DNA of 32,000 nt from Gemmata obscuriglobus (GCF_008065095.1 NZ_CP042911.1:2310001-2342000), one strand, 5' to 3'; counted from the stretch's first letter, positions 8,874-27,250 are shown. The notes: generated by a model from the letters alone, not told the origin. Made by a program: numbers and translations.

Positions 8874-9097
8874 CGGAACCCGCACGACGGAGTACGCAAC
8901 ACTTGTAACCGTAACTCATGAACTGCAAAGCGCAAGCGGGAAACGGTTTCTGGGGCCAACTGCGCCGAGCCGTTCGGCCGACCGTCCCGTCGCCGGGGCC
9001 GGCCGGCTCGCTAAGACATGAGAACCTCTCCCGGCCCTCCGCGACGGCTCGCGGTTCGGTACACTTCTCAGCACGCACCAGTCGGGAGATTGTTTCA

Positions 9098-12000: not shown

Positions 12001-12772
12001 CAACGAGTTTAAGTTCGGCAAGTACGAGCGGGTGAAGATCACGCTGAAGGACGGGTTCGTGCTGGAAGGCGCGATCACCTACCCGCCGGACTTCGACCCG
12101 AAGAAGAAGTACCCGGTCTGGCTGTTCACCTACGCCGGGCCGCACAGCCCCACGCTGCGCGACGAGTTCGGCGGCGGGCGCGTCATGGAGCAGTCCCTCG
12201 GTACCTCCGGCATCATCACCTTTCGGGTAGACCCCCGGAGCGCGAGCGGGAAGGGGGCGAAGTCCGCGTGGGCGTGCTACAAGCAACTCGGCGTGCAGGA
12301 ACTCAAGGACCTGGAAGAGGCGGTGGCGTGGCTCGCGGAGAAGCCGTACATCGACGCCAAGCGGGTCGGCATCAGCGGGCACAGCTACGGCGGGTTCATG
12401 GCCGCGTACGCGCTGACCCACTCCAAAACCTTCAGCGCGGGGATCGCATCGGGGCCGGTGACGGACTGGAAGCTGTACGATTCTATCTACACCGAGCGCT
12501 ACATGCTCACCCCGAAGGAGAACCCGGAGGGGTACGCGAAATCGAGTTGTGTGGCCGCGGCGAAGAACCTTGCCGGGAAGCTCCTCATCGTTCACGGGAT
12601 GATGGACGACAACGTCCACATGCAGAACAGCGTGCAACTTGTGGACGCGCTTCAGCGGGCCGGGAAGGACTTCGAGCTGATGCTGTACCCGCAAGCCCGG
12701 CACGGGATCGGCGGCGGGCACTACTCGCGGCTGCAACTCGACTTCATTCGCCGAGCGATGAAGGAGAAGTAA
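9098..12772 (+). CDS. Secreted fusion protein: N-terminal M14 zinc carboxypeptidase domain plus C-terminal S9B dipeptidyl-peptidase IV domain
   Basis: Starts at ATG 9098, preceded by GGGAG, with the signal peptide MTRTLALLAALAAPAAARAQA. M14 motifs: HAGE (9392..9403), NADGNE, DLNRDF, DCHTTNGS. DPP4 motifs: DWVYEEEIF, YWWSPDGKQLAFLRFDD, GHSYGG (Ser codon 12383..12385), HGMMDDNVH, ARHGI. Confidence 0.85.
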   Translation: MTRTLALLAALAAPAAARAQALQTVAEKTDYKATSRGADVVAFCEAVAKRGPVARLDYFGASHEGRKLPYLVLSHERIATPEDAKKSGKLVALAFANIHAGEVDGKEALLALARDLTDRTDHPLLKNLVLVLVPNLNADGNEKIDPKNRLGDNGPIEGAGTRANAQKLDLNRDFVKLESPEIRALIKLVNEWNPAVVIDCHTTNGSKHRFKLTYDGPRYPSSSDLAKWADGTLFPEVTKKVKDATGFDIAPYGNFSPDRTRWETYPATPRYSIQYFALCGRLGILSESYSYATFKERIDATRAFVTACLEVVAENRKGVAKLVALEKPARVAVRTKTEAFPEKLQVLGFEEIEKDGKRVVTAAHKAYHLDYAGRVAPTEFADLPFAYLVPADCTAAVETLQRHGIQVEELREDVDLDAERMLVTSVEKAGQSQSATVTSVVGRWDRETHRVPAGTIVVKTGQPLGALAGYLLDPRSEDGLTTWGQLPVGGTQTHFPVLRLPAAVPLALGAAPKLPEARRTNQPITDAQLTGRGGMSAFGFSGTPLTTGAWIDGEHFLQVKDGVLLKVKARTGKGEPFTDPAKIKSSLDAIKGLDNATRDRLAKGTSFRTSPDRAAFLFDIGPDIGIGYFDGNPGARLTKSDGAKEHVTFSPDGKRVAFVRGANLFAVSVEKPLEEHKLTADGGGEVFNAKGDWVYEEEIFNRNGKAYWWSPDGKQLAFLRFDDAPVKKFNLVDLQPVGGRLESYAYPKPGDPNPLVKVGVVSADGGKPTFLDLGGYKPEETLISRVGWVGKSGTVFAYVQNRTQTWLDFVVWDSPTAKPKTLFRETTQAWVDDAGEPRWLPDGTFLFLSERTGWKHLYHYSAEGKLLAAVTQGDWEVKDVLRVDAKEKTVYFSAALTSPTGTDLCRVTFGSDTELLTEKGKTHRVSLALEGELFVDRFSDPMTPTQSNLYEVGKGVVRKLDTNPVRERNEFKFGKYERVKITLKDGFVLEGAITYPPDFDPKKKYPVWLFTYAGPHSPTLRDEFGGGRVMEQSLGTSGIITFRVDPRSASGKGAKSAWACYKQLGVQELKDLEEAVAWLAEKPYIDAKRVGISGHSYGGFMAAYALTHSKTFSAGIASGPVTDWKLYDSIYTERYMLTPKENPEGYAKSSCVAAAKNLAGKLLIVHGMMDDNVHMQNSVQLVDALQRAGKDFELMLYPQARHGIGGGHYSRLQLDFIRRAMKEK

Positions 12773-13052
12773 AGTCGGTAGTTTAGGTCGCATGGGCATG
12801 GGGTAGGTGGTTCGGGTAGTCGGCGGGTCGCGTGTTGAACCATGCGGGCCGCCGGCGCTCCCGCGCCAAGCGATCTCGGACAGGTGCTTGGTTCGGTCCG
12901 GTTGGCTGAAGGCGGGCACTTCGCGCGTGGCTGCCACATCCGCGCAAGTCGTTGGGGCGAAACGCCGCGGCGACTGAACCGCGAATAAGTGAAGACAGAG
13001 GGCCGCCGGCGCACATGCAACCGGTAAGGAAACCGTGCGCAGGGAGGAAGCC

Positions 13053-15857
13053 ATGAGGGTAAGCCAAACTGTCTCGTTGGGCCGGGCGGTCGTGGGGGCG
13101 GGGGGCGGGACAGACACCGACCGCGAGTTACTCCGCCGGTTTGCGCGCGACGGCGACCAAACGGCGTTTGAGGCGCTCGTGAGGCGACACGCCGGCATGG
13201 TGCTGGGCGTGTGCCGTCGGTCGCTGCCGACCGTTCAGGACGCCGAAGACGCGTGCCAGGCGACGTTTGTGGTGCTGGCCCGCCGTGCCGCCGCCGTCCG
13301 GTGGAGCGAGTCGGTCGCGAGTTGGCTGTACACCACCGCCCGCCTGGTCGCGCGGAACGCTCGCGTTGCGGCCGCCCGGCGGGTCGAGCGTGAGGCCCGG
13401 GCGGCGGTGCCGGAGGTGGTCGAGCCAGTCGACCGGGTGACCGGGCGCGAGATGTTGGCGGCCCTCGACGCGGCGATCGATCGGTTGCCGCCGGCGTACC
13501 GCGAGCCGCTGGTACTGTGTTACCTAGAGGGGCTGACGCACGATGAGGCGGCGGCCCGGCTGGGCGTGCCGCGGGGCACGGTCGGCACACGGGTGGACCG
13601 CGGGCGAAAGCGGTTGCACGCGGCGCTGGTGCGGGCCGGGCTCGCGCCGACCGCCGGGTTACTGGCTCTCGCGGTCGCGAACCCGGCGTCGGCGCGGCTG
13701 GTCGGGCTGGCCCTCGCGGCGGTGGCGGGGCCGGTGCCGGTCGCGGTCGCGGAGCTGGCGAACGGAATCGCCACGACCGGAACGGCGAAGTCGCTGGTGT
13801 GTGCGCTCGTGGCGTTGGCGTGCGCCTGCGCGCTGGCCGCCGGGCTGGCGTCGGTGGCACCATCGCGTGGGGGCGTGGCCCGACCGACCGCGGCGAAGGG
13901 GGAACCGCCTGTGGTGGCGCCTTCGGCGGCGCGAGTTGAGATCAAGGGGCGGGTGGTCGACGCGAACGACAAACCGCTGCCAGGGGCGAAGCTGTTCCTG
14001 CACTTGGGGCACACGATAGTGCCGGCGCAGCAGGTGGCTGCGGGCGACGACGGCCGCTTCCTGTTCACAATCTCGGGTGACACATTGCCCTTGCTGCTTG
14101 CCACTGCGCCTGGGCAGGGGGTGGGGCGGTGGCCCCTGAACGGGCGCCCGGTGGCGGAGTTCACGCTCCGGCTGACCCCAGACGAGCCGGTCCGCGGGCG
14201 TGTCGTGGACCCGGAGGGCAAACCGGTCGCTGGCGTGTCGGTGTCGGCCCGCGCGCTGTACATGTACCACGGTGAGAAGGATTTCGATCGCTGGTTGAAG
14301 GCGGCACGCGACCCGGATTGTAAGGAGGTGGCGAGAGGCGGTGAGCCGATCTACGGCACAGAGCGTGGATTCACCGGACCGATCGAGCCGGCCACTTCCG
14401 ACCGCGACGGCCGGTTCGAGCTTCGCGGCATCGGCCGCGACCGGGTCGTGGTCCTCCGTGCCTCCAGCCCTACCACCGCCACGCACGAACTGACCGTGGT
14501 GACGCGGAAGGTCGAGCGGTTCACCGCCCGCGCCGACACTGCCATCACCGGCAGCGCAGAGGAGGTCCACGGGTGCGAGCCGGTGGTGGTGGCCGCGCCG
14601 GTGCCGGTCACCACCGGTCGGGTGCTCGACGACGCCACCGGCGAGCCCGTCCCGGGTACCGTGCTGCGGGTCGGTGGGCTGCACGGTTCGTCGAGGCTGG
14701 CGGAACTGATCGCGGTTGCGGGCCGGGACGGGACGTTCGTGCTGCCCGGGCTGCCGCCGGGCGGGCGGCCGCACGCGTTCGTCCTCCCGCCGGGCGACAC
14801 TTTATATCACGCACTCAAGGTGAGCGTCCCCGACGAGCCCGCCGGCCGCGCCGGTTTCGACATCAAGCTGACTCGTGGCGTGCCGGTCACGGTGAAGGTC
14901 GTTGATAAGGTGACCCGCGCGCCGGTAGAGTCGCAGCTCCGGTACGGCGTGTTTCCGGGCGACAATCCGAACCAGAAAGCGGTGCCGAACGTGCGCCACT
15001 TTCACCAGACCGAGCACCCGCGTCGGCCGTACATCTCGTACGAGTCGGAGTTCCGTATCGTCGCATTCCCCGGCAAAGGGATGCTGGCCGTGCAGGTCCC
15101 GGAAGTCGGCGCGTTCGGCGGCGCGTACCTCTGCGGGGTCGGGGCCGGGACGTTCGAGAAGCACCGGCGGGGCGACGAGTTGGTCGGCACGACCGGGGTG
15201 AGCAGAACCTCCGTCCGGGACTGGCACACGTTCGCCGAGATCGACGTGCCGGCCGACGCGAAGTCGTTCGCGGTCACGCTCGAACTGGACCGCGGGTTGA
15301 CGGCGCCGGTCCGGCTGATCGACGCCGACGGGCGACCGGTCGCCGGGGCCGAGAGTTACGGGCTGGTCCACCCGGCCGGGGGCGCGCGGTGGTCCCGGCC
15401 GCTGGCCGACGCGACGCCGACCGCGGTCGCCCTGCGCGCCGGCGAGCAGCGGCGGGTGATGTTCGTGCACACTGACCGCAAACTGGCCGGGTCCGCGGTC
15501 GTGGTCGGCGGGGCGAAGGACCCGGTCGAGGTGCGAATGGTCCCGTGGGGTGAAGTCAAGGGGCGCATCGTGAACGCCGACGGTAAGCCGGTCGACGTCC
15601 GCCTCGATCTCTCTACCGACTTCGTTCGCAAACCAGATCTCAAGTTCGGGTCGACGCCCATCTGGAACCCGGCGATTGCGGGTGTCTACACTGGCGAGGA
15701 CGGGTGCTTCCGCATCACTGGCTTGGTACCCGGCTTGACGTACCGGTGGGGCGTCAACGGGTGGACGGTCGACGCGGCTACGTCCACGGACACGGTCGCG
15801 AAAGGCGGCGAGACGATCGACCTCGGCGAGATCGTGGTGCGCCCCGAACAGCCGTGA
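13053..15857 (+). CDS. ECF (group IV) sigma-70 factor fused to a transmembrane helix and about six carboxypeptidase-regulatory-like beta-sandwich repeats
   Basis: ATG 13053 follows AGGGAGGAAG. Region 2: DQTAFEALVRRHAGMVLGVCRR..DAEDACQATF. Region 4: YREPLVLCYLEGLTHDEAAARLGVPRGTVGTRVDRGRKRL. Transmembrane segment: LVCALVALACACALAAGLASV. Repeats include GRVVDANDKPLPGA, GRVVDPEGKPVAGV, GRVLDDATGEPVPGT, VRLIDADGRPVAGA and GRIVNADGKPV. Confidence 0.8.
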   Translation: MRVSQTVSLGRAVVGAGGGTDTDRELLRRFARDGDQTAFEALVRRHAGMVLGVCRRSLPTVQDAEDACQATFVVLARRAAAVRWSESVASWLYTTARLVARNARVAAARRVEREARAAVPEVVEPVDRVTGREMLAALDAAIDRLPPAYREPLVLCYLEGLTHDEAAARLGVPRGTVGTRVDRGRKRLHAALVRAGLAPTAGLLALAVANPASARLVGLALAAVAGPVPVAVAELANGIATTGTAKSLVCALVALACACALAAGLASVAPSRGGVARPTAAKGEPPVVAPSAARVEIKGRVVDANDKPLPGAKLFLHLGHTIVPAQQVAAGDDGRFLFTISGDTLPLLLATAPGQGVGRWPLNGRPVAEFTLRLTPDEPVRGRVVDPEGKPVAGVSVSARALYMYHGEKDFDRWLKAARDPDCKEVARGGEPIYGTERGFTGPIEPATSDRDGRFELRGIGRDRVVVLRASSPTTATHELTVVTRKVERFTARADTAITGSAEEVHGCEPVVVAAPVPVTTGRVLDDATGEPVPGTVLRVGGLHGSSRLAELIAVAGRDGTFVLPGLPPGGRPHAFVLPPGDTLYHALKVSVPDEPAGRAGFDIKLTRGVPVTVKVVDKVTRAPVESQLRYGVFPGDNPNQKAVPNVRHFHQTEHPRRPYISYESEFRIVAFPGKGMLAVQVPEVGAFGGAYLCGVGAGTFEKHRRGDELVGTTGVSRTSVRDWHTFAEIDVPADAKSFAVTLELDRGLTAPVRLIDADGRPVAGAESYGLVHPAGGARWSRPLADATPTAVALRAGEQRRVMFVHTDRKLAGSAVVVGGAKDPVEVRMVPWGEVKGRIVNADGKPVDVRLDLSTDFVRKPDLKFGSTPIWNPAIAGVYTGEDGCFRITGLVPGLTYRWGVNGWTVDAATSTDTVAKGGETIDLGEIVVRPEQP

Positions 15858-15997: not shown

Positions 15998-18373
15998 CTA
16001 CGAAAACACACACACGCCGTCGCACCAGTCGGCTGCGATTACCTTCCCGTCTGTGATCGGGTTCGCGAGCAGCCATCGGGCGAGAGGGGCAACCACCTCG
16101 CGCTCGATCGCGCGCTGGAGCGGTCGTGCCCCGTACCGCGGGTCAAATCCCACCTCGGCGAGACGCTCCACCAGTCGCTCCGACCACCGCACCGCGGCCC
16201 CGCTGCGCACCAGCCCCTCGCGGGCGGCGATGGACTCCAACTCGCGCCGGGTGATGGCCCGCACGGACGCCGGGAGCAGTGACCGGAACGTGACTACGGC
16301 GTCCATCCGGTTGAAGAACTCCGGGCGGAAGAACTTCATCGCGGCGTCCTGGTACCGCACCCCCGAATCCGCACCGAACCCCACCGCGCGCGACTGCCCG
16401 GCCCCGAGGTTCGAGGTCATGATGATGATCGTGCTGCGGAAGTTGGTGACGCGGCCGTACTGGTCCGTGAGCCGGCCTTCATCGAACACGCCCATGAGCG
16501 TGTCGAACACGTCCGCAGCCGCCTTCTCGATCTCGTCCAACAGCAGCACGCTGAACGGCTGCTGGCGCACCCGCTTCACCAACTCGCCGGGCTCGCCGCG
16601 GGGCGGCCCGAGCAGCCGGTACACCGCGTCGAACCCGCCGTACTCGCTCATGTCCAGCCGGATCAACCGCCGGTCCCGTGCGGAATGCGGAATTCGGGAT
16701 TCGGAATGCGGAGAGGCGGTACCGCTGCTTCGTTGGTTTTCCTGCTGCAATTCCGCATTCCGAATTCCGCGTTCCGAATTACTTCCCCCGTGTCCGAAGA
16801 AGTAGTCGGCGAGCGCCTGGGCCATGTGCGTTTTGCCGACCCCCGTCGGACCGCAGAACAGCATCACCGCGGGCGGGCGGTTCGGGTCGTTCAGCCCCGC
16901 CTTCACGGTCATCACGACGTTGGTGGCGGCCTCGCACGCCTCCGGCTGGTCGATGACGCGCGCCCGGAACCAGCTCCGCACGTCGTCGCGCTGGAGCGTG
17001 ATCTCGTCGCGCAGGAACAGCTCCGGTAGCCCGGTCTGCCGGCGGAACCGGTCCACCACCGCGGTCGGGGTGACCGGCTTCTTGCCGTCGCGGACGTGTT
17101 CGTCTACCAACTGTCGCGCGAACCCGGACGCGGGGCCGGGGAACGCCGCGTAGGGCATGAACCGCCGGAACAGGCGGACGATGCGCTCGCCGGTCCCGCG
17201 CTCGACCTCTACCCCGGGACCGCTCGCGGACGCGTCGAGCTGCCGGTCGATGACCGACAGCGCGGTGGCACGGTCGAACGGTTCGACGCGGACGATCTGG
17301 AACAGGTCCGGTAGCCCGGGCATGAGCCGGTGGCACGCGTCCAACTCCGCGGGCGTTACCTCGGCGATCATGCGCAGTTCGCCGCGGGCGAGGTACGGGA
17401 CCAGGAACGCCGCGATGCTGTCGGTGGGGCCGAGCCCGCCGGTGCGCACGAGTTCCAGCAGCCGCTCCGCGCACAGGACGCCGTTGATTTCGCCCAGTTC
17501 CGCAATCAGCGACTCGACGCGCTCCTCCCACTGCCCGAGGTACCGCATCCCGGCGACGATGCGGCCGGCGGACGTGAGCCAGAACTTCCGCTTCTGCGGC
17601 CGCGGTTCGTCGGCGTCGCGAGAGCGGTTGGTGTCGGCGAGGGCTTTCTTCTCGGCCTCCCGGACGGCGTCGACCATGAGCGTGGTTTTGCCGACGCCCG
17701 CCTCGCCCAGGAGCAGCACGTTGGCCTTTTCGTGGTGCAGCTTGCGGACGAGCGCGGCGAGGTCGGCTTCGCGGCCCCAGGCGCGGGCGTAGCCCTTGCG
17801 CACCGCGCGGTCGCCGACCGGTTCGGCCACCTTCGCCAGCGTGGGCGGCGGGGGTACCGTGAGCGGGCCGCCTGGCGGTTCCTTCGGAACGGGAACGACG
17901 AGCTCGAGCAGCTCGGCCTCGACCGGCGGCAGGTACGCGCCCACCTCTTCCGGCGTCAGCCCTTCGAGCTTCTGCGAGACGTACCGCTCGACGAGCTTTT
18001 CGAGTTCGGTCCCGTTGGGGTAGTCGAACCGGAGCCCGAGCAGCGGCAGGTCCGCGGCGAACTGACCGCTCTTGCGGGTGCCGACGACGCACGGCACCCG
18101 CACCGGCACCTCGGCGTCCGTGGGGTACAGCCGGTTCTTCCCCTTGTACTCGGGCCGCACGTTGACGGTGAACCAGCGCAGCTCGGGCTCGCCGAAGTCC
18201 GGCGCCTCGGCGTGCTCGTCCTTGCGGTGCAGCCAGCGCAGGTACTCCTTGAGGTCGTCGCGGGCGTCGTTGGCGGTCTTGCCGAACCCGGTGGTGCCGA
18301 GGTCCAGCGCGATCGCGGAGTGCCCGCCGGCGGCGTCGCGACAGAGCAGGGCGTGGTAGCGTGCGGTGGGCAT
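15998..18373 (-). CDS. Clp/Hsp100-like double-AAA+ ATPase, paralog A (791 aa, no C-terminal extension)
   Basis: Starts at ATG 18373 (MPTARYHALL). D1 P-loop: LLLGEAGVGKTT. D1 small-domain motif: RFMPYAAFPGPA (compare the ClpA/B LPDKAID motif). D2 motifs: FCGPTGVGKT, LLLDEIEKA, MTSNLG, FRPEFFNRMD, GARPLQRAI. There is no ClpB-type M-domain. Confidence 0.85.
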   Translation of the reverse strand: MPTARYHALLCRDAAGGHSAIALDLGTTGFGKTANDARDDLKEYLRWLHRKDEHAEAPDFGEPELRWFTVNVRPEYKGKNRLYPTDAEVPVRVPCVVGTRKSGQFAADLPLLGLRFDYPNGTELEKLVERYVSQKLEGLTPEEVGAYLPPVEAELLELVVPVPKEPPGGPLTVPPPPTLAKVAEPVGDRAVRKGYARAWGREADLAALVRKLHHEKANVLLLGEAGVGKTTLMVDAVREAEKKALADTNRSRDADEPRPQKRKFWLTSAGRIVAGMRYLGQWEERVESLIAELGEINGVLCAERLLELVRTGGLGPTDSIAAFLVPYLARGELRMIAEVTPAELDACHRLMPGLPDLFQIVRVEPFDRATALSVIDRQLDASASGPGVEVERGTGERIVRLFRRFMPYAAFPGPASGFARQLVDEHVRDGKKPVTPTAVVDRFRRQTGLPELFLRDEITLQRDDVRSWFRARVIDQPEACEAATNVVMTVKAGLNDPNRPPAVMLFCGPTGVGKTHMAQALADYFFGHGGSNSERGIRNAELQQENQRSSGTASPHSESRIPHSARDRRLIRLDMSEYGGFDAVYRLLGPPRGEPGELVKRVRQQPFSVLLLDEIEKAAADVFDTLMGVFDEGRLTDQYGRVTNFRSTIIIMTSNLGAGQSRAVGFGADSGVRYQDAAMKFFRPEFFNRMDAVVTFRSLLPASVRAITRRELESIAAREGLVRSGAAVRWSERLVERLAEVGFDPRYGARPLQRAIEREVVAPLARWLLANPITDGKVIAADWCDGVCVFS
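16679..16783. repeat. 105-bp palindromic element made of inverted heptamer arrays, inserted in frame in paralog A
   Basis: Left arm: five tandem heptamers gcggaat/gcggaat/tcgggat/tcggaat/gcggaga. Right arm: the inverse array caattcc/gcattcc/gaattcc/gcgttcc/gaattac. It encodes SNSERGIRNAELQQENQRSSGTASPHSESRIPHSA, which is absent at the same site in paralogs B and C. It is visibly less GC-rich than the flanking sequence. Confidence 0.7.
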
Positions 18374-18380
18374 GGCGATA

Positions 18381-18450
18381 AGGCAAAAGTGTGAAGGCAA
18401 AAGGCAAAACGCAAGGCGAGCCGCCTCACGAGTTGCTTCTTTTTTGCCTT
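18381..18450. repeat. A/T-rich spacer with a reiterated AGGCAAAA motif between paralogs B and A
   Basis: aggcaaaa occurs at 18381..18388 and 18395..18402, and ggcaaaa at 18403..18409. The inverted copy ttttgcct is at 18443..18450. The 92-bp intergenic region is clearly lower in GC than its surroundings. Confidence 0.5.
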
Positions 18451-18465
18451 TTAACTTGCTCCTTT

Positions 18466-21400
18466 TTACTTGGTTGCCCGCGGCAGTGCGGCGAGCGTGA
18501 AGGTGCGGAACACGTCGGCGAACTCGGCCCGCGACGGCAGCGGCGAGACGAGCCCGGTGCGCAGGTCCGCGACCGGTTGGCCGTCGGCGTACACGCGCAG
18601 GATCGGGCCGAACGCGAACGGGTCCGGCACCGCGCCGAGCCACCCGTCGAGCACGTCCACGCGCACCGGCACCGGGCCGCCGTGCTTCGGCAGGAACAGG
18701 TGCGTTCCGGCCTCGGCCTGTGCCAGTGCGCGGGCGTGGAGCCCCTTCAATCGCAGGGCGAGCGTTCCACGCTGTTCGGACGCGATCGGAACGTTTTCCA
18801 GTTCCAGCCCCAACCCGTGCGCCCAGACGCGCAGGTACCAGCCGTGCAGCGCGGCCGCGCCGGGGCACGCTTCGCCCTCGGGGAACCCGCGGATCAGCAG
18901 GTACACCGGCCTCTCATCGACCGGCGCCGACACCATCAGGTTCAGCAGCGCGAGCCGGTTCTCCAGGTCGAACACGTCCTGGTCGTCGGGCAGCGGTTCG
19001 GACCCCTCGAATAGCTCGCGGAGCGCCCCTTGCATGTCTTCCGACGACATCACCGAACGGAGCGGTTGGTCCCGCTCGTGCCAACCCTCACCGCGGCCCG
19101 AGCTGAGAGAGTAACGGTTGATCTTGATCGCGCGGTAACGGGCGCGGCGCCCGGTCGATTCGGGCTGGGAGGCTTCGAGGTACGAGTTGCGCCGGGCTTC
19201 GAGCCGGGCCTCGTAGGCGTCGAGTGTGCCGGCGATGGCGTCGGCCAGTTCCTTGAGCGCGAAGTAGCGCTCGTGGTCGCGCGTCACCCGCCCGGCGGTC
19301 AGTACGGTCCCCGGGCGAATGGCGTCGAGCACCGCGTCCACCTTGTCGAGCGCGTCCCATGCGGCCGATAGGCGGTCCCGGAGCGGCCGGGCGGCGCGCT
19401 CGTCGAGCGGGAGCTTGGCCGCCCATTCCGGTGCCTGCACATCAACGGCCAGTGTGCCGGCCGCGGCGCGCACCGTTACGATCGTGAGGTCGTTCACCGC
19501 GAGTGCCGCGAGCCGAGAGGCCGCGGGCTGAGTCAGTTCGTGCTCCACCGCGCGTTTCATGGCGCGGGCGCCGAGTGCAGGGTCGTAGCCCGCCTGGATG
19601 ACGCGGTCCAGCGCGTCGGGGGCGACGTTCAGCACACACTTCCGCTGGCTAAAGCCCTCGCGGGCGAGCACCTCACCCACCAGCCGCCGGGCGATCCGCG
19701 CCATCTCCTCGCGCGACAGCTTGCGGAACGGGATCACCCGGTCCAGGCGGTTGAAGAACTCGGGCCGGAAGAACTTCTCCGCCGCCCGCGTGTACGCGAA
19801 CGACCGGTCCGCTTCGGTCACGAACCCGAGGTTCCCTTCGGCGTCGCGTACGCCGAGGTTCGAGGTCATGAGGACGAGCGCGGAGGTGAAGTCCGCGGTG
19901 CGGCCGAGCGAGTCCGTCAGCCGCCCCTCGCCCAGCAGTTGCAGGAGCAGGTCGAACACCTCGGGATCGGCCTTTTCGATCTCGTCCAGCAGCACCACCG
20001 CGAACGGCTGGCGCCGGATCGCGCTCGTGAGCAGCCCTTCGGGTTGCTGGAACGTGCCCACGAGCCGCGCCGCGGCGCCGGGCTGGTTGTACTCGTTCAG
20101 GTCGAAGCGCAGCAGCCGATCAGAATCGCCGAACAGCGTGCGCGCGATGGCCTTGGCGCACTCCGTCTTGCCGACGCCCGTGGGGCCGAGGAACAGGAAC
20201 GCCGCGAGCGGCCGGTCCGGGTCGTTCAGCCGCGCCTTGGCGACGCTCACCACGTCGGCGAGGGCGTCCACCGCGTCGGGCTGGCCGATCACCTGCTCTT
20301 GAAGCTTGTCCCGGACTGCGTCGCGGTCCAGCCGCTGCTTCGGGTCGAGGAACGCGAGCGACAGCCCGCTCCGGGCGGCGAAGTCGTTCAGCACGTCGTC
20401 GCGGGTGATCTCGGGGCGCGGCGGGAACTCGTACCCGTCGGCCGGGCGCGTCGCGCTGGACCCGACCTCCGCGGCGCGTTCGTCGGGGTTCGTGGTGGCG
20501 CGCACCGCCAGGCGCGTCAGCACCGCGGCGGCCTTCCCCGGGAACGCGGCGGTGCGGTCGTAGCGGCGTTGCTGGTCGATGACCGCGGGCAGCACGTCGA
20601 GCCCGAACACGCAGGCGTGCTTGCCTTCGAGTCGCCGCTGCTGGTCCACCAGGACGCGGAGCGTGTCGGCGTCGGTCGGCTGGCGCACCGGGATGATGTG
20701 GAACAGGTCGCTGAGCCCGCGGTCCCGCTCCTGGAGCACGCGCAGGCTCTCGGGGGTGATCTCGGCGAGCACCCGCACGTCGCGCCGTTCGAGGTACGGT
20801 TTCAGGACCACCGCGGCACTGAGCGACGACTGGCTCGTGACGCCGGCGAGGAACAGGCCGAGCAGGTCGTCGAAGTAGAGCACGTGGTCGCGCTTCTTGG
20901 CGTGCTTCAGGATCGCGAGCAGCCGGCCCTCCCACTGGCCCACGTAGGACATGCCCGAGATGAGCCGCTGTGGCGACACCAGCCACGTGTTGAACCACTG
21001 CCGCTGGTTCGCCTTGCGCTCCGCGACGCGGCGGTACACGCACTCGTGGACGATGGCGGATTTGCCGACGAGGCGGGGGCCGCACAGCAGCACGGGGCGC
21101 CGGTCGCCCAGCTCCAGGAGCCGGTGGAGTTCGTTCACCTCGCGGTCGCGCAGCACGGCGCGGTCGAGTTCGTCGGGGTACAGCCAGTCGAGGCACCGGC
21201 CGACGCGACGCAGCTCGGTGGCGCCGTCCCCCGTTTCCCCGCCGCCGAGCGACAGGAAGTTGGCGGGCGGCTTCTTCGGCACCACCGCGGGCACGCTGGC
21301 GCTCAGGTCCAGCACCTGGACCCACGCCTTGCCCGACAGGGAGCCGAGTTCGGGGCGCACCTCCTCGTCAACGTCGGCGTCGCGTTCGACCCCGCGCCAG

Positions 21401-21792
21401 TGCTCCGTGTAAACCGCCTGTGCGCGGTCCTCCAGGGGCTCGCCGCGGGGCACCTCGAACCACAACTCGGGCACCGCGGGCGTGAACGCGAGCCGGCGGC
21501 CGAGGTGGTCGAACGCCAGCACGAGGTACTTGGTGCGCGCGACCCGGCGCCGCAGCTCGACATCGACGGTGGTGCGGTGCGCGGTGACGGCCGGGCAGAA
21601 CGCCCAGGCCGCGAGTTCGTCGTGCCGCTCCTTGCGGCCGAGCGCTTCGAGGTGCTCGACCAGCTCCCGGGTGAGCTTCGTGAGCAGCCGGTTGAGGTTC
21701 CCGTCGGTGCGCTCGGGGCCGCCGAAGAACAGCGGGCGCGCGGTGTACCCGTTCTTGTGCTGGAAGACGTAAATCGGGACGCGGAAGTTCAT
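18466..21792 (-). CDS. Clp/Hsp100-like double-AAA+ ATPase, paralog B (1108 aa) with a release-factor-like C-terminal extension
   Basis: Starts at ATG 21792 (MNFRVPIYVF). D1 P-loop: LLCGPRLVGKS. D1 Walker B-like motif: VLYFDDL. D2 motifs: FLGPTGVGKTE, VLLDEIEKA, MTSNLG, FRPEFFNRLD, GARAMKRAV. About 320 aa follow the D2 small domain. Confidence 0.85.
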   Translation of the reverse strand: MNFRVPIYVFQHKNGYTARPLFFGGPERTDGNLNRLLTKLTRELVEHLEALGRKERHDELAAWAFCPAVTAHRTTVDVELRRRVARTKYLVLAFDHLGRRLAFTPAVPELWFEVPRGEPLEDRAQAVYTEHWRGVERDADVDEEVRPELGSLSGKAWVQVLDLSASVPAVVPKKPPANFLSLGGGETGDGATELRRVGRCLDWLYPDELDRAVLRDREVNELHRLLELGDRRPVLLCGPRLVGKSAIVHECVYRRVAERKANQRQWFNTWLVSPQRLISGMSYVGQWEGRLLAILKHAKKRDHVLYFDDLLGLFLAGVTSQSSLSAAVVLKPYLERRDVRVLAEITPESLRVLQERDRGLSDLFHIIPVRQPTDADTLRVLVDQQRRLEGKHACVFGLDVLPAVIDQQRRYDRTAAFPGKAAAVLTRLAVRATTNPDERAAEVGSSATRPADGYEFPPRPEITRDDVLNDFAARSGLSLAFLDPKQRLDRDAVRDKLQEQVIGQPDAVDALADVVSVAKARLNDPDRPLAAFLFLGPTGVGKTECAKAIARTLFGDSDRLLRFDLNEYNQPGAAARLVGTFQQPEGLLTSAIRRQPFAVVLLDEIEKADPEVFDLLLQLLGEGRLTDSLGRTADFTSALVLMTSNLGVRDAEGNLGFVTEADRSFAYTRAAEKFFRPEFFNRLDRVIPFRKLSREEMARIARRLVGEVLAREGFSQRKCVLNVAPDALDRVIQAGYDPALGARAMKRAVEHELTQPAASRLAALAVNDLTIVTVRAAAGTLAVDVQAPEWAAKLPLDERAARPLRDRLSAAWDALDKVDAVLDAIRPGTVLTAGRVTRDHERYFALKELADAIAGTLDAYEARLEARRNSYLEASQPESTGRRARYRAIKINRYSLSSGRGEGWHERDQPLRSVMSSEDMQGALRELFEGSEPLPDDQDVFDLENRLALLNLMVSAPVDERPVYLLIRGFPEGEACPGAAALHGWYLRVWAHGLGLELENVPIASEQRGTLALRLKGLHARALAQAEAGTHLFLPKHGGPVPVRVDVLDGWLGAVPDPFAFGPILRVYADGQPVADLRTGLVSPLPSRAEFADVFRTFTLAALPRATK

Positions 21793-22063: not shown

Positions 22064-25000
22064 CTACTCCGAGATCATCTTGAGCAGCGTGGACCGCACG
22101 TTCGCCGCCAGCGCCGGCGCCAGCCACCGGTCGAAGCCGCCGTACACGTTCGACCACACGCGCTCGACCACCGCGTCGTGCATCTCGCCGGTGCCGAAGT
22201 CGTACTGCCGGCGCACCGGCTCGTCGCTGAACCAGCCGCGGCGAACGACCGTCTCCGGCGGCAGGTACTCGCGCGCTGGGCCGCTGCTCGCCCGCACCAT
22301 CACGTCCGGGCCGTCGCCGGTTTTGTCGTCGGGCCGTTTGATCTCGTGCCGCCCGGTTTCGCCCCAGAACCGTAGTTGCGCGCCCACGCCGCCGATTTCC
22401 AGAACGAGGCCGATGGTGCCGGCGGTTGTGTCGGGGGCGTGTTCTGCCGGCGCCACCGCGACCCGCTTGAACAACAGCTTCTCCGGGTCCCTGAAAAAGT
22501 AGTTGTCGTTCACCCACACCGTTTTCGGCAGGTTCGGGTCCGCTGCACGGCCGAGCGGGGCGCGCTCGGGCGGCGTCGCGGGCGGGTCGTTCGGGGCCGG
22601 CAACGCGTAGCGGAACACACGCACCGTCATCCCGTGCTCGTGCGCGATCGCGCGGTAGGCGGCGGCCATCTCCGCGAGGTTCCCGCGGTGCTCGGAGAAC
22701 AGCGCGAGTGTGACGCGATCCCCCTCCGGTGCGCTCAAGGCGTACAACCGAAGGAGCAACTTGTCCCAGGCGCGGTTCGCTTCGTCGAGCCGCTCCTGAA
22801 TCTCCCGGGCGGGCGGTTCCGCCGTTTCGTGGAACGCGATCACGGTGGCGTCCTCGAGCGCGAACGCGGCGTCCCGCTGGCGCGCGACCTCGTCGGCCAG
22901 TTCCCGGAGCCGGCCGAGCTTCGCCAGCGCCTCGGCCTCCGCGCCGCTGATCTTCTTCTTTGCGGCCTGCCTCTTGAGGATGCGGACCTCTTGCTGCGCG
23001 AGCTGGTACACCTCGTTGTTCAGCTCGCGCACCGCGGACGACGCGGCCAGCACCTGGTGCCACCGGCGCATCACCTGCGCGCCGGCCGCGAGCTTCCCGC
23101 TCGGCCCGGACGGCTCACGCGCCGATTTCGCCCGCGCCCCCTGAAGGGCGCGCACGGCGACGATCGGCACGCCGTCCGCCACGCCCACCTCAACGGCCAG
23201 CGGCACGTTGCCGGCGTGCCGGTTCATCTGCCGGGCGAGCGGCGCGAGCAGCTCGCGCTCCATCGCCCGCTTCAGCGGGCGCGCGCCGTACCGCGGGTCG
23301 TAACCGACCGCCGCCAGGTGGTCCAGCAGCGCCGGGTCCGTCGCGAGCGACAGGTCACGGAACCGCACCCCGTCGCGGCCCTGCACCTTGTGCCACTCGC
23401 GGTCCGTGATGCCGCGGATCACCTCCGGCCCGAGCGGCGCGAAGGGCACGATCCGGTCGAGCCGGTTGAACATCTCGGGCCGCAGGAACTGCTCCACCGC
23501 CCGCGCGAAGTGCTCCTGCGATTCGGTTTTCCCGACCGCGCCGGTCAGGAACCCGGACGAGCCGCGGCGGAACGAGTCCGCGCCCAGGTTCGACGTGAGG
23601 ATGACGACGGTGTTGCGGAAGTCCGCGAGCCGGCCGCCGGCGTCCGTGAGGCGCGCCTCGCCGAGCGCCTGGAGCAGCAGATCGAAGAACGAGTGGTCCG
23701 CCTTTTCCACCTCATCAAGGAGCAGCACCGCGAACGGCTGCTCGCGCACCCTCGCGGTGAGCAGCCCCTCGCTCCCGAACGCCCCGCCGACGAGCCGGCG
23801 CACCGACACCGGGTCGGCGTACTCGCTCATATCGAACCGCGTGAGCCGGTCCTTCGAGCCGAACAGGAACTCCGCCACCGCCTTCGCCATCTCGGTCTTG
23901 CCGACGCCCGTCGGGCCGATGAACAGCAGCGACGCGATGGGCCGGTTGGGGCGCGTCAGCCCCGCCTTCACGGTGGCGAGCAGGTCCGTCACCAAGCTCA
24001 CGGCGTCGGGCTGGCCGATCACGCGCCGGGCGAACCAGTCGTGCGTGGCCGCCAGGTCGAGGGGCACCGACGGGTCCAGGACGGCGCGCGGCAGCCCGGT
24101 TTCGCGCGTGAACGCATCGTACACCTCGGTTTCGGTGATCGGCTCGCCCTTGGCGCCGTCGCGGATCAGGTTTTCGAGGAACCGGAGCGGCCGGCCCGGG
24201 TACGCGGAGTACGTCGCGTACCGGCGGTGGAGGCGGTCCGTTGCGGCGAGCGCGGCCGGCTCGGTCACGCGGCGGGCGTTGTCGCGTGCGAAGCTCGCGA
24301 GGATCGCGCGCCCCTTGGCGGTGCCGGGCTCCTCGACCGTGATGTGCCGGAACGCGTCGAGCAACTGCGGGTCCAGCTTCTCGATGAGCGGCAGTTGCTC
24401 GGGGGTGCATTCCGCGACGCACAGCAGCTCGCCGCGGCCGATCGCCGGGCGCAGGAACGTGGCGAGGCCGGACGAGTTGTGCTCGCTCTTGCCCACCTCG
24501 AGCAGTTCCACCAGGGGGCCGAAGTGGATCACGGCCTTGCGCTTCGTCGCGTCCTTGATGAGGTCCTGGCACCGCTCCTGCCACATGCCGAACCCGGTCT
24601 GGCCGGCGACGACCCGCGCGCCGCTGGTCTGGAAGACCGGGGCACGCGCCGACGCGCGCCAGCGGCGGGCGAGTTCGCGCACCGCGGCCGTTTTGCCGAC
24701 CCCGCTCGGGCCGATCAGCAGGACGCTTTGCGTCGGGTTGCCCGTCAGCGCGCGGGTGAGTTCCGAGACCGTCTCATCGGCCTCGTAGGTCTTTTCGTCG
24801 TCGCGCCCGAGAAGTGTGGCGATCTGTTGCAGCAGCGTGAGCTTTCCGTCCTGCTGATCGGTTTCGGCGCGGATCGCGCGGTCCTTGAGGGTCGGGATGC
24901 GGACGGCGAGCGCGTGGGACTCCACGGCGAACCCGAGCGTGGTCTGAACGCCGGCGACCGACTTCAGGTTCACCGACAGGTTCAACCGCCGCAGCGCCGC

Positions 25001-25468
25001 CAGCGTGTCCTTCTGGAGCAACCGCACGAGGTTGTCGGCCGGGTCCGCGATCACCTCGATCCCGAGTTCCAGAACACGCGCCAGGGTGTAGCCCTTGAAT
25101 TGGGGCGCGCTGGGGCCGAACGGCGCTCCGTCTGGGTCGGAGGGGCTGTCCGAGGCGCTCTGATCCCACACCGCGGCGTGGAACGTGAGCAGCAGCGGGT
25201 CGCGCCAAGCTTCGTTCGTGCGCGGCGGGGACAGTTCCAGCGTGAACGTGAGTTCTCGTGCCGCCCGGGAGCGGCGCCGCCGGAGCAGCGTTTCGGGATC
25301 GAGTTTGGGAATCAGCTCAGTGAGGTTTCGCCGCGCGGCCGTACCCGCAAGGGCGCGGTTCGCCCCGAGGCGAGCGAGTTCGGGGAAGAACAGCGGTTCC
25401 GCCAGCACCGCCCCGGGGCCGAGCTTGCGCAGGGCGAGGGAAACGGGGAACTCGATCTCAACCGCCAT
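22064..25468 (-). CDS. Clp/Hsp100-like double-AAA+ ATPase, paralog C (1134 aa) with a release-factor-like C-terminal extension
   Basis: Starts at ATG 25468 (MAVEIEFPVS). D1 P-loop: LLIGPSGVGKT. D2 motifs: FIGPTGVGKTE, LLLDEVEKA, LTSNLG, LRPEMFNRLD, GARPLKRAM. About 360 aa follow the D2 small domain. Confidence 0.85.
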   Translation of the reverse strand: MAVEIEFPVSLALRKLGPGAVLAEPLFFPELARLGANRALAGTAARRNLTELIPKLDPETLLRRRRSRAARELTFTLELSPPRTNEAWRDPLLLTFHAAVWDQSASDSPSDPDGAPFGPSAPQFKGYTLARVLELGIEVIADPADNLVRLLQKDTLAALRRLNLSVNLKSVAGVQTTLGFAVESHALAVRIPTLKDRAIRAETDQQDGKLTLLQQIATLLGRDDEKTYEADETVSELTRALTGNPTQSVLLIGPSGVGKTAAVRELARRWRASARAPVFQTSGARVVAGQTGFGMWQERCQDLIKDATKRKAVIHFGPLVELLEVGKSEHNSSGLATFLRPAIGRGELLCVAECTPEQLPLIEKLDPQLLDAFRHITVEEPGTAKGRAILASFARDNARRVTEPAALAATDRLHRRYATYSAYPGRPLRFLENLIRDGAKGEPITETEVYDAFTRETGLPRAVLDPSVPLDLAATHDWFARRVIGQPDAVSLVTDLLATVKAGLTRPNRPIASLLFIGPTGVGKTEMAKAVAEFLFGSKDRLTRFDMSEYADPVSVRRLVGGAFGSEGLLTARVREQPFAVLLLDEVEKADHSFFDLLLQALGEARLTDAGGRLADFRNTVVILTSNLGADSFRRGSSGFLTGAVGKTESQEHFARAVEQFLRPEMFNRLDRIVPFAPLGPEVIRGITDREWHKVQGRDGVRFRDLSLATDPALLDHLAAVGYDPRYGARPLKRAMERELLAPLARQMNRHAGNVPLAVEVGVADGVPIVAVRALQGARAKSAREPSGPSGKLAAGAQVMRRWHQVLAASSAVRELNNEVYQLAQQEVRILKRQAAKKKISGAEAEALAKLGRLRELADEVARQRDAAFALEDATVIAFHETAEPPAREIQERLDEANRAWDKLLLRLYALSAPEGDRVTLALFSEHRGNLAEMAAAYRAIAHEHGMTVRVFRYALPAPNDPPATPPERAPLGRAADPNLPKTVWVNDNYFFRDPEKLLFKRVAVAPAEHAPDTTAGTIGLVLEIGGVGAQLRFWGETGRHEIKRPDDKTGDGPDVMVRASSGPAREYLPPETVVRRGWFSDEPVRRQYDFGTGEMHDAVVERVWSNVYGGFDRWLAPALAANVRSTLLKMISE

Positions 25469-25630
25469 GAACGCTCCCGGAACAGGATCGCACAGTGTGA
25501 CGCATCGGGACAGAGGGGGCAAGTGGGTGCCCGGTTCGGTGCGCCGGATCGGAACAAACGCGCGCCGAATTTGTTCCAATTCGTGTATGTGGTACGGGCC
25601 GAGCGGCTACTGAATGGGTAGGAGGGGGCC

Positions 25631-27250
25631 ATGTCGCACCGCACCGCCCGTTTCGTCGCAGCACTCGTTCCCGAGCGCGAATTGCCGACCGATGCGGAAC
25701 TGCTCGCTCGGTTCGCCGCCGGGCGCGACGCCGGCGCGTTCGAACTGTTGGTCTGGCGCCACGCCGGGCTTGTGCTTCGCGTGTGCCGCGCGGCCCTCCG
25801 CGACCGGCACGCCGCGGAGGACGCCGCTCAAGCCGTGTTTTTGGCCCTGGCCCGTCAGGCCGGCTCGGTCGGTCGGTCCGGGACCGCCGCCGGCTGGCTG
25901 TTTCGGGTGTCGCGTCGGGTGTCTGCTCGGGCGGCGCGGCGCCGAGTCGCGGTTCCTGTGCCAGCTTCCGATCTCGACGCGCTCCCCGCGCCTGACGCTC
26001 CTGAACCGGACCGTGACGCCGAACGCGCGGTTCAGGAGGAGGTCGCGCGGCTGCCGGAATCGCATCGGGCGCCGGTGCTTCTGTGCTTCTTTGAAGGGCT
26101 GACCCACGCCGAAGCGGCCCGGCGGCTCGGTGTTCCCGTCGGCACCGTGGCGGGGCGGATCGCGCGGGCCAAAGAGGTTCTGGCCGTCCGGCTGAGGCGG
26201 CGCGGCCTCTCGCTCGCCGTTCTCCCTTCAGCCGGTGTTCTGATCGTTCCGGCGTTCGTGTCGGCCACCGCCCACATCGCAATCACCTTTGCGGCGGAAG
26301 GCCGCGTCGGTGTGCCCGGCCCCGTTCTCGAACTCGTCAATCAGGAGTTGCGCGTGATGGCCCTCAAGAGAGTGCTCGGCGGCGCTGCCGCGCTCGTGCT
26401 GGTCGTGGCTGGTGCGTGCCTGAGCTTCGGGATGAGCGGGCCGCCCGAACCACCCGCCGCGCCTACCCCGGCCCCGCACGTGGCGGCCGAAAAGCCGCCT
26501 GCTCCGAAGGTGCCGGCTCCGGTGATCGGCAAGGCGTTCGCTATCGCCCCGATCACCACCGACCTCCAGCGTCAGCTCATTCGCGGCGCCGGGGCCGACT
26601 CAGCGGTGCTTCTGATTGTGGACGCGCAAACGCTGCTAAAGGACGATAAGACACTCGATGTCGGCGCCCTTCAGCTCGCCGAGATGCGGAAGGGCCTACG
26701 AGCATTCCGGCGAGCGAAAGGCCAATCTGTCGCCCACAGCGCGGTTCACTATCCGTTCGGTCGCGAAATATCAGGTGACAGCGCGGACGCGCTCGATTTC
26801 GTGCTCGCCGGTGCGGCGCGCGCTGAAGAGTTCGCTCCGGTTACGCCGCTCGGATACCACACCGTACACAACCAGGCGTTCGATTTCGTCAAGTACATCA
26901 GCCCACTGAAGGAGAAGGCGGCGGGCGACACGGCCGAGGTTGGCGTGGGTGACGAGCGGGTGGTTGCGTACCCGGTGCGAACGCCGCTCAGTCAGGTGTT
27001 GACCGGCTCGGTCAGCGGAGTGCTCATCGTAAAAACGCCGGTCATGTGCCAGGGGGACGTGTGGCAGGCGGACGGCTTGGGGGCATCGGTCCGGGGCACA
27101 CTCGAAAAGCTGAAGCTGGCCAAGGGCAGTCGGGTCTACTTCTCGCTGAACGTGCAAGGGCGGAACCCCAAGGCGACCGACCAACTGCGGCTCGACTGTG
27201 CGGAGTGGGCGAAAGACGCCGGATTAGAGTTGTGGCAGACCAGCTATTAA
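25631..27250 (+). CDS. ECF sigma-70 factor fused to a transmembrane helix and an uncharacterised ~270-aa C-terminal domain
   Basis: ATG 25631 is preceded by GGAGGGGG. Region 2: DAGAFELLVWRHAGLVLRVCR..AAEDAAQAVF. Region 4: HRAPVLLCFFEGLTHAEAARRLGVPVGTVAGRIARAKEVL. Transmembrane segment: VLGGAAALVLVVAGACLSFG. It is a paralog of the 13053 sigma gene in its sigma part. Confidence 0.8.
   Translation: MSHRTARFVAALVPERELPTDAELLARFAAGRDAGAFELLVWRHAGLVLRVCRAALRDRHAAEDAAQAVFLALARQAGSVGRSGTAAGWLFRVSRRVSARAARRRVAVPVPASDLDALPAPDAPEPDRDAERAVQEEVARLPESHRAPVLLCFFEGLTHAEAARRLGVPVGTVAGRIARAKEVLAVRLRRRGLSLAVLPSAGVLIVPAFVSATAHIAITFAAEGRVGVPGPVLELVNQELRVMALKRVLGGAAALVLVVAGACLSFGMSGPPEPPAAPTPAPHVAAEKPPAPKVPAPVIGKAFAIAPITTDLQRQLIRGAGADSAVLLIVDAQTLLKDDKTLDVGALQLAEMRKGLRAFRRAKGQSVAHSAVHYPFGREISGDSADALDFVLAGAARAEEFAPVTPLGYHTVHNQAFDFVKYISPLKEKAAGDTAEVGVGDERVVAYPVRTPLSQVLTGSVSGVLIVKTPVMCQGDVWQADGLGASVRGTLEKLKLAKGSRVYFSLNVQGRNPKATDQLRLDCAEWAKDAGLELWQTSY

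Follow-up and report, generated by a model that had tools for sequence, protein, structure and literature searches.

Three paralogous Clp-type ATPase genes in the Gemmata window

We analysed a stretch of 32,000 nucleotides (nt) from Gemmata obscuriglobus (GCF_008065095.1, NZ_CP042911.1:2310001-2342000; G+C ~65-72%), hereafter called the window, for an ATPase gene whose C-terminal tail resembles a bacterial class-I release factor (RF). The list of open reading frames (ORFs) contained three paralogous genes, C, B and A, arranged head to tail on the minus strand and separated by spacers of 271 nt (C-B) and 92 nt (B-A). Positions are counted from the first letter of the window, and every feature of these three genes lies on the minus strand. 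Pfam matches to AAA in the first ring (D1), to AAA_2 in the second ring (D2) and to ClpB_D2-small marked all three products as two-ring Clp/Hsp100-type AAA+ ATPases.

Gene C (22064..25468, 1134 amino acids (aa)) was assigned as a ClpA/ClpC-like double-AAA+ ATPase with an RF-like tail, from the ORF list, the N-termini of orthologues, Pfam and NCBIfam. Its maximal ORF (22064..25579) opens at a TTG at 25579; the true start is likely to be the ATG at 25468, since the N-termini of the orthologues begin at MAVEIEF. Gene B (18466..21792, 1108 aa) is a paralog with an RF2-like, GGQ-less tail of its own (18469-19470), and gene A (15998..18373, 791 aa) is a tail-less paralog that stops after D2-small. 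Beyond D2-small, C runs on for ~350 aa, B for ~330 aa and A for 0 aa.

An earlier note on this stretch had proposed that the last 360 aa of C (22067..23146) carry a divergent copy of a GGQ-less RF-like tail that is also present in B, and that A has no such tail. We observed that this interval does encode the last 360 aa of C, and all four peptides quoted in the note were found in the translation of ORF 22064..25579. A ends directly after D2-small, as had been stated. The C-tail region was ~95% identical at the protein level to Gemmata algarum JC673 contig 24 (L004).

Evidence for a release-factor module at the C-terminus of C

The tail of C (349 aa) was modelled with AlphaFold2 from a 15-sequence alignment, and the model had a mean predicted local distance difference test score (pLDDT) of 85.6 and a predicted template modelling score (pTM) of 0.77. 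When the model was searched against the PDB using Foldseek, ranks 1-46 were all class-I release factors (RF1, RF2, the mitochondrial mtRF1/mtRF1a, and PrfH). The best of these matches had E 2.5e-7 and probability 1.00, and the first match outside the release factors had a probability <0.1. The structure prediction gave no unrelated fold.

We also evaluated the tail using profile comparisons. An exhaustive search with the C-tail profile (E<=1e-3) yielded 530 cluster representatives. A tail alignment of 126 sequences (Neff, the effective number of sequences, 6.7) was built from the top 150 of them and from earlier matches. When this profile was compared with E. coli RF1+RF2 end to end by hhalign, the global P was 4e-8, with a probability of 93%; the C profile against RF2 alone gave a global P of 2e-6. 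Two blocks were significant locally, and they were colinear with RF. The first of the two, C231-261 (GLVLEIGG..GRHEIKRP), aligned with RF1 157-187 (P 4.4e-5) and with RF2 175-205 (P 2.8e-5), and the other, C287-340 (containing ..RRQYDFGTGEMHD..), aligned with RF1 290-346 (P 1.1e-3). In the former, G..A..RF..E.G.H of the C profile stands opposite isG..y..lk.E.G.HRv, and in the latter, RR..RRxYD...D stands opposite RR..RTYNFPQ.RVTDHR.

These two are the second and third of three RF blocks that had been read in the tail by the earlier note, and both were upheld. The first block, in which DRVTLALFSEHRG.. stands opposite aflEvRAGtGGdEA..RMY of the RFs, was aligned only globally, with the GxGG loop deleted by 5 residues, and had no local significance.

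The remaining sequence searches with the C tail were negative. Pfam on the tails found neither PCRF (PF03462) nor RF-1 (PF00472), even at E<=10. The hidden Markov model (HMM) of the C tail, when searched against PDB sequences, found no RF and matched only ClpB D2-small, owing to upstream residues in the homologues, and hhalign on the alignments before trimming aligned only the shared D2 portion. The identity of the C tail to RFs was 9-13%.

The ratio of nonsynonymous to synonymous substitution rates (dN/dS) was 0.27-0.40 for the tail vs 0.11-0.19 elsewhere in the protein: purifying selection acts on the tail and is more relaxed there than in the ATPase core. Together, these studies have led us to conclude, with high confidence, that C ends in a diverged RF module of the bacterial class-I type, ~350 aa long, which contains domains 1, 2 and 4 and lacks domain 3.

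Anatomy of the C tail

The tail is joined to D2-small by a linker of ~35 aa (23105-23218). It opens with four long helices (residues 4-127; 22733..23104), seen in the DSSP assignment of the AlphaFold2 model with pLDDT mostly >90, which correspond to RF domain 1. This helical part aligned with RF1 1-105 in the global hhalign comparison (with low per-column confidence), and its LRRxxQ..NE and LED motifs are conserved.

The first half of RF domain 2 is represented by b1-a5-b2 (residues 133-170; 22604..22717), as judged from DSSP, the global hhalign alignment and conservation. Here RVTLALFSEHRG..AAAY corresponds to lEvRAGtGGdEA..RMY of the RFs, the GxGG loop is deleted by 5 aa, and FSE replaces GGxE. 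A family-specific insert follows (residues 171-230; 22424..22603), for which a length of ~60 aa and a Pro-rich composition had been claimed. The insert is indeed present, and only its first ~27 aa are Pro-rich: these form a disordered linker of variable length (22523-22603), which leads into a predicted beta-meander of three strands. The pLDDT of the insert was 57-71, with one segment <50, and its length across the family ranged from 25 to 106 aa.

The second half of RF domain 2 is formed by b3-a6-b4-loop-b5 (residues 231-276; 22286..22423), as supported by local hhalign and conservation. It includes the near-invariant E252-x-G254-x-H256 of b4, which corresponds to E.GvHRv of the RFs; E252 was found in 126/126, G254 in 125/126 and H256 in 121/126 sequences. 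The loop at the PxT/SPF position (residues 260-270) was variable and gappy. Since this loop is variable and the GxGG of the alpha-5 tip is deleted, stop-codon reading is not conserved.

A junction of 23 aa (residues 277-299; 22217..22285) lies at the point where domain 3 is inserted in RFs, as seen from the gap in the global alignment, the spacing and the conservation. RF1 ~210-295 had no counterpart in the C tail in the global hhalign alignment. The junction carries the motif Y283-x-P285-P286...R291-R292-G293, which reads YLPPETVVRRG in C (22235-22267) and Y-x-P-P-x-G-I-x-R-R-G in the family. In the longer form of the motif, YxPPxGIxRRGxI(G)x(Q)P, the Q at tail position 298 occurred in 45/126 sequences, and C has SDEP there. 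The spacing from the His of b4 to the Arg of b6 (H256-R301) was 36-47 aa in 126/126 homologues vs ~119 aa in RF1, which leaves no room for a GGQ domain between the last two blocks, as the earlier note had said.

The last part, b6-b7-b8 and a C-terminal helix (residues 300-349; 22067..22216), corresponds to RF domain 4 on the basis of local hhalign, DSSP and conservation. RRQYDF..MHD of the C tail is the equivalent of RTYNFPQ.RVTDHR in the RFs, with R302 conserved in 126/126, R301 in 111/126 and Y304 in 110/126 sequences. The most conserved positions of the tail are the RF core motifs (E252, G254, H256, R302 and Y304 among the 126 sequences), in line with the expectation that the RF-like blocks would be the conserved ones. 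According to DSSP, the predicted topology is b1-a5-b2-(insert)-b3-a6-b4-loop-b5, the 23-aa linker, and b6-b7-b8-aC, so that the elements follow one another as in RF domains 2 and 4 with domain 3 left out (b6 to aC 300-348, b1 133-140, a5 143-159, b2 163-170, b3 233-241, a6 245-252, b4 254-259, b5 271-276).

No GGQ tripeptide was present in the C tail of the window. As domain 3 is missing, peptide-release activity is excluded in principle. In terms of function, the C tail does not qualify as a release factor, since a GGQ domain and a tripeptide anticodon were both looked for and not found, and the tail stays under the Pfam thresholds.

We also examined GGQ tripeptides that occur in 6/126 of the tails as a candidate catalytic motif, and rejected them. 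Two of these were scattered and four (P0051, P0143, P0158 and P0187) fell in one column of the short loop that stands in place of domain 3; the GGQ of these four homologues is probably not catalytic.

The tail of B and its relation to the tail of C

The B-tail profile matched E. coli RF2 by sequence in an HMM search (E 1.4e-4, RF2 residues 10-202), and hhalign aligned B165-263 with RF2 102-205 (P 7.3e-5). The model of the B tail had a pLDDT of 78.5, and its Foldseek matches in the PDB were release factors only, the best being RF2 (1gqe) with E 3.4e-7. In the B tail, ADLRTG (18553-18570) matches KDLRTG of RF2, and a conserved LPKHGGP (18673-18693) stands at the position of the SPF loop. These results confirmed that B bears the same kind of tail. 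The B tail, with 13-22% identity, is closer to RFs than the C tail is, and HMM searches detected only B, so that C is the more divergent copy, as had been proposed.

A direct relation between the two tails was more difficult to establish. BLASTP detected no similarity between them, and the B-tail HMM had 0 matches among the top 150 C-type representatives. Homology of the two tails in a profile-profile comparison had been set beforehand as the test on which the claim of a common origin should stand or fall. With shallow, trimmed profiles the two tails aligned colinearly without significance (E 0.28); with the deeper C profile the comparison gave a modest P of 2.8e-3 (C235-317 vs B236-306). We infer that the B and C tails are homologous through a shared RF ancestry and would have diverged long ago, mainly because both are RF-like and not because of their direct similarity.

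The motor part of C compared with A and B

For the analysis of the motor, A, B and C were aligned with E. coli ClpA and ClpB, and the 63 full-length C-type representatives described below were included. C begins with an N-terminal domain of ~213 aa (24830..25468) that is conserved in 20 loci. It had no Pfam match at E<=1, and Clp_N was not found in it by Pfam. The N-terminal domains of A and B (17777-18373 and 21133-21792; those of all three proteins are ~200 aa) also had no Pfam match, and the mutual profile similarity of the three was marginal (P ~0.01). By eye, the start of the A domain might resemble HicB-type antitoxin folds; the Pfam search did not support this, and a search of the A domain against PDB sequences gave no match.

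The first AAA+ module of C (D1, 24080..24766) was delimited by Pfam AAA matches and the ClpA/ClpB alignment. Its Walker A is intact (GPSGVGKT, 24689-24712). Its Walker B is degenerate (VIHFGPLV, 24509-24532), with the acidic pair lost, and reads hLHLGNLV family-wide among the 63 full-length representatives. The corresponding motif is degenerate in the other two paralogs as well: it has lost its acidic pair in A (VLCAERLL, 17456-17479) and reads VLYFDDLL in B (20860-20883). The Clp-type pattern, with catalytic acidic residues in the Walker B motif of each ring, was not found in the alignment. Judging from these motifs, D1 of C and A probably binds ATP without hydrolysing it.

The second module of C (D2, 23453..23944) matched AAA_2 with a Pfam E of 2.5e-41, and its Walker A (23894-23917) and Walker B (23699-23725) are both intact. 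The D2 Walker A, Walker B (DE) and arginine-finger region were intact in all three paralogs. The module is followed by ClpB_D2-small (23219..23434; PF10431, E 5.4e-14), which also had ClpB D2-small matches in the PDB. The alignment columns of the ClpB-type M-domain were empty in A, B and C.

An aromatic residue is retained in the D1 pore loop. The pore loop of D2 is shorter by 5 aa than the canonical G-Y-V-G loop of ClpA/ClpB and highly variable across the family; the segments (alignment columns ~812-823) are GGAFG.SEG in C, GTFQQ.PEG in B and GPPRG.EPG in A, and the aromatic residue is absent from the loop of A. At the position of the IGL loop, by which ClpA docks on ClpP, we observed SSGFL in C (23546-23560), NLGFV in B (19819-19833) and AVGFG in A (16373-16387). 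The tripeptides at this position are SGF, LGF and VGF respectively; other family members have VGF, FGL, PGF, TGF or VGW, and ClpB has none. The x-G-F is compatible with ClpP docking, and these ATPases may cap ClpP.

The best NCBIfam score was 320 bits, for ClpB (cut-off 1232), with 262 for ClpA (cut-off 993), and A, B and C were all far under the NCBIfam cut-offs for ClpA, ClpB, ClpV, ClpK and ClpG. A known anti-phage defence system was considered as well and rejected, as PADLOC gave only partial, generic matches to the AAA+ D2 (PDC-M37B and DolB; ~130-160 aa).

A further observation concerns a low-complexity insert of 40 aa in A, HGGSNSERGIRNAELQQENQRSSGTASPHSESRIPHSARD (16673-16792), which lies just past the D2 Walker A helix. 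It is missing from B, C, ClpA and ClpB.

Distribution of the family and conservation of the gene order

Word-indexed searches found only 8-27 relatives per tail (17 for C by profile), and the named ones were Gemmataceae. The exhaustive profile search (the 530 representatives described above) indicated that the C-type architecture is common in metagenomes. Among the tail matches carried forward from it were 63 full-length proteins, all of which are >1000 aa and have the tail after D2-small. The named examples were almost all from Planctomycetota. Their public labels are just "AAA family ATPase" or "ClpA/ClpC", as for WP_145052575.1 of Lignipirellula cremea.

To describe the gene order, we used 22 related loci, 21 from a scan of species-representative genomes and one (L001) from a Gemmataceae metagenome-assembled genome. 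The 21 scanned loci with close relatives came almost entirely from Gemmataceae and related planctomycetes. B followed C in 14/22 loci, and A followed B wherever there was enough downstream sequence, except in L008. The loci named as having the order C-B-A are L004, L006, L012, L015, L017, L020-L024 and L028.

In the other 8/22 loci, including L001, neither B nor A was found beside the C-like gene, and the same was seen in L. cremea. Solitary C-type genes that encode a Clp ATPase with the RF tail were recorded in L001, L009, L011, L013, L014, L018 and L027 (Lignipirellula cremea, CP036433.1). They also occur in other Gemmata-like genomes, with ~47-57% tail identity to the window, and on this ground genomes like that of the window may hold a fourth, solitary paralog.

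The C-B-A operon was also present on a contig labelled Actinomycetota, a label that may be a binning error; its three genes are one-to-one orthologues of those in the window, at ~39-42% identity. The presence of one-to-one orthologues at ~40% identity on so distant a contig shows that the triplication is old and that the three genes are kept together. The conserved C-B-A order and the one-to-one orthologues suggest a hetero-oligomeric AAA+ assembly with RF-like tails on two of its three subunit types.

Some public assemblies list orthologues of C and B as short fragments: P0001 (430 aa) and P0032 (468 aa), both on one 10.09-Mb contig, and P0008 and P0033, both on one 98.9-kb contig. In genes of such high G+C content, these fragmentary calls suggest frameshifts or wrongly called starts, and they account in part for the architecture having stayed unannotated so far.

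Comparison with known systems

Burroughs and Aravind (PMC6514570) describe the hydrolase domain of RFs as inserted into the codon-recognition domain, and the helical N-terminal domain as the part in contact with the GTPase. The tail of C has several features of RF1/RF2 (PrfA/PrfB): the helical domain 1, the domain-2/4 superdomain with the same order of strands and helices, E-x-G-x-H in b4, R-x-Y...D in b6/b7, L..(M/A)Y in a5, and what is left of the switch-loop region, including an RR pair. It differs from them in having no domain 3, no conserved PxT/SPF, a deleted GxGG loop and an insert of 25-106 aa between b2 and b3. It is also the C-terminal tail of an AAA+ ATPase, whereas RF1 and RF2 are free-standing, and it falls under the Pfam PCRF/RF-1 thresholds. 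That the uninterrupted domain-2/4 module could be the ancestral form of the bacterial codon-recognition domain, from before the insertion, is in our view very improbable.

The reduced bacterial relatives of RFs that have been surveyed (ArfB/ICT1, PrfH and MRPS35) have kept the hydrolase domain and shed the decoding parts (PMC6514570). PrfH and ArfB/ICT1, which serve in ribosome rescue, resemble the C tail in being truncated RF derivatives outside normal termination, and PrfH (9mor) was rank 46 of the Foldseek matches. The C tail is nevertheless the opposite of PrfH, which has no domain 1 and keeps the GGQ domain (PMC6514570). ArfB consists of the hydrolase domain and a C-terminal helical tail, whereas the C tail keeps domains 1, 2 and 4 (PMC6514570). 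The C family is the converse of these reduced RFs, with the decoding parts kept and joined to a protein-unfolding motor.

The GGQ motif has been lost in plant mtRF2b and in a tick ICT1-like protein; mtRF2b is expected to be non-hydrolytic, and another function has been suggested for the tick protein (PMC3472500). These are likewise members of the RF family without the catalytic motif. As described, however, they have lost a motif and are free-standing, while in C the whole domain has been excised and the remainder fused to a Clp ATPase.

The nearest systems in function are Dom34/Pelota-ABCE1 and Vms1-Cdc48, and the comparison with them is a functional analogy only. In these systems an RF-type A-site module (catalytically inactive in Dom34) works with an ATPase on stalled ribosomes, and the ATPase dismantles the stalled complexes or extracts the nascent chain (background, in part from PMC6514570). 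They differ in that archaeal/eukaryotic RF1 (aeRF1) is RNase-H-like and unrelated to the bacterial RF fold, and in that module and ATPase are separate polypeptides.

With respect to the motor, C is similar to ClpA/ClpC in its two AAA+ modules, AAA_2, ClpB_D2-small, intact D2 motifs, an x-G-F tripeptide at the IGL position and absence of a ClpB-type M-domain. The differences are a unique N-terminal domain that is not Clp_N, the degenerate D1 Walker B, the short D2 pore loop, the RF-like tail of ~350 aa, the conserved three-paralog operon, and scores under the equivalog cut-offs. In the literature we found no RF-like domain on a Clp/Hsp100 protein and no fusion of a GGQ-less RF, in a search that had most subscription journals outside its coverage and does not prove absence. 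As no published description was found, the RF fold on a Clp ATPase appears to be an undescribed combination of known parts.

A possible role at the ribosome and the alternatives

The explanation that we favour, and which we regard as close to an even call, is that the GGQ-less RF module of the Clp ATPase serves as a non-catalytic module for docking at the ribosomal A site. It is based on the observation that the core of the decoding superdomain and the switch-loop remnant have been preserved by selection while the codon-reading residues were lost. The tail would dock at the A site and the decoding centre of the ribosome, a step that by itself we consider conceivable and somewhat doubtful. As the stop-codon-reading elements are lost, this docking would be independent of a stop codon. 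The tail would bring the unfoldase to ribosomes that are probably stalled or have a vacant A site, where C would probably work with its operon partners B and A and may dock on ClpP through the x-G-F loop. There the unfoldase would pull out or degrade a protein bound to the ribosome, or take the complex apart. It would be a covalent bacterial counterpart of the systems that pair an inactive RF paralog with an ATPase (Dom34/Pelota-ABCE1, Vms1-Cdc48). A more elaborate picture, in which the B and C tails are dead A-site sensors of a planctomycete ribosome-associated AAA+ machine and recruit a heteromeric C/B/A unfoldase, with ClpP as a possible cap, to ribosomes that are stalled or damaged, where it would remove or degrade bound proteins or split the complex, is rather unlikely to be correct in all its parts.

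A number of observations speak against docking at the A site. No translation gene was present among the neighbours of the operon, and gene context gave no support for a link to the ribosome. The codon-reading residues are lost in the C tail, and the domain-2 insert of 25-106 aa could clash with the A site. The tail sits at the D2, ClpP-proximal end of the motor and substrates enter at the far end, which makes a ribosome-docked geometry hard to picture. Processive threading would not be assured either, as the D2 pore loop is short and variable and has no aromatic residue in A. As to the RF assignment itself, the Foldseek TM-scores of the C tail were just 0.36-0.41, and the RF profile used for comparison consisted of two E. 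coli sequences only (RF1+RF2). Modest TM-scores are, however, expected for a flexible multi-domain protein that is missing one domain.

Several of the same observations fit a tail that was derived from an RF and exapted as a scaffold without ribosome contact, which would offer a platform for substrates or adaptors or serve the regulation or oligomerisation of the hexamer. This main rival is possible, though we lean against it. The beta-sheet might bind peptides by strand addition, as in RF2-ArfA, or the helical bundle might replace the M-domain of ClpB/ClpC. A scaffold of this kind would agree with the loss of the codon-reading elements and the variability of the corresponding loop, with a gene context unrelated to translation, and with the four long helices at the start of the tail. 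With neither an M-domain nor a Clp_N domain present, another regulatory or adaptor site would also be needed, and loss of the GGQ motif has a precedent in mtRF2b and the tick ICT1-like protein (PMC3472500). A generic scaffold does not, however, easily explain why conservation is highest in the core of the RF decoding superdomain and in the switch-loop remnant, nor why B and C, which diverged anciently, have both kept the arrangement of domains 1, 2 and 4.

It is quite unlikely that the tail mimics an RF in order to bind the partners of RFs (RF3 via domain 1, an ArfA/BrfA-like adaptor, or an RF-targeting toxin), which the unfoldase would then remodel or degrade. The GTPase-interacting domain 1 (PMC6514570) is retained and well conserved (LRRxxQ, NE, LED), and the PDB matches included complexes of ArfA-RF2 and BrfA-RF2, in which the adaptors sit on domain 2/4. 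But none of the genes linked to the operon is a candidate for such a partner, and PrmC-type partners are excluded since the GGQ domain is absent.

A resemblance due to chance, to an artefact of assembly or annotation, or to the accidental fusion of a decaying RF pseudogene would suit the missing Pfam PCRF/RF-1 matches, the negative B-C BLASTP and the non-significant shallow profile-profile comparison, but is hardly credible given that AlphaFold2, Foldseek (RF-exclusive for two independent models, B and C) and the global profile comparison (P 4e-8) agree, that the tail of B is also RF-like and GGQ-less, that the tail is under purifying selection, and that 530 representatives match its profile and orthologues at ~40% identity keep the architecture.

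If the tail does dock in the A site, the family would represent a new bacterial coupling of ribosome-state sensing to ATP-driven remodelling or proteolysis, and a defined set of genes would allow tests of ribosome quality control in bacteria outside tmRNA, Arf and RqcH. If it does not, the family would be a clean case in which the fold of a translation factor has been put to new use as an accessory domain of a Clp protein. In both cases, hundreds of proteins labelled "AAA family ATPase/ClpA/ClpC" gain a domain annotation that can be checked.

Neighbouring genes and other features of the window

A scan of the whole window with Rfam found no family, and in a scan for the promoter and terminator of the operon the signals were not above chance. 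A terminator-like hairpin with a T-run was noted at 18410-18430 (-) in the B-A spacer, in a region where the count of such sites was not above the shuffled expectation.

The genes that flank the operon encode sigma factors of the extracytoplasmic function (ECF) type, a DUF3160 protein and a threonine dehydratase, and they are kept only in close relatives. Two of them are ECF-type sigma-factor genes with very long C-terminal extensions, at 25631-27250 (+) and 13035-15857 (+). The first encodes a protein of 539 aa, and the second one of 940 aa with CarboxypepD_reg-like repeats. Only the gene at 25631-27250 was conserved, and only in the closest relative. Further along the window, an ORF of 1284 aa at 8918-12772 (+) has a signal-peptide-like start, and by eye its product looks like a fusion of an M14 carboxypeptidase-like part with a part resembling dipeptidyl peptidase IV (DPP-IV)/S9 prolyl oligopeptidase.

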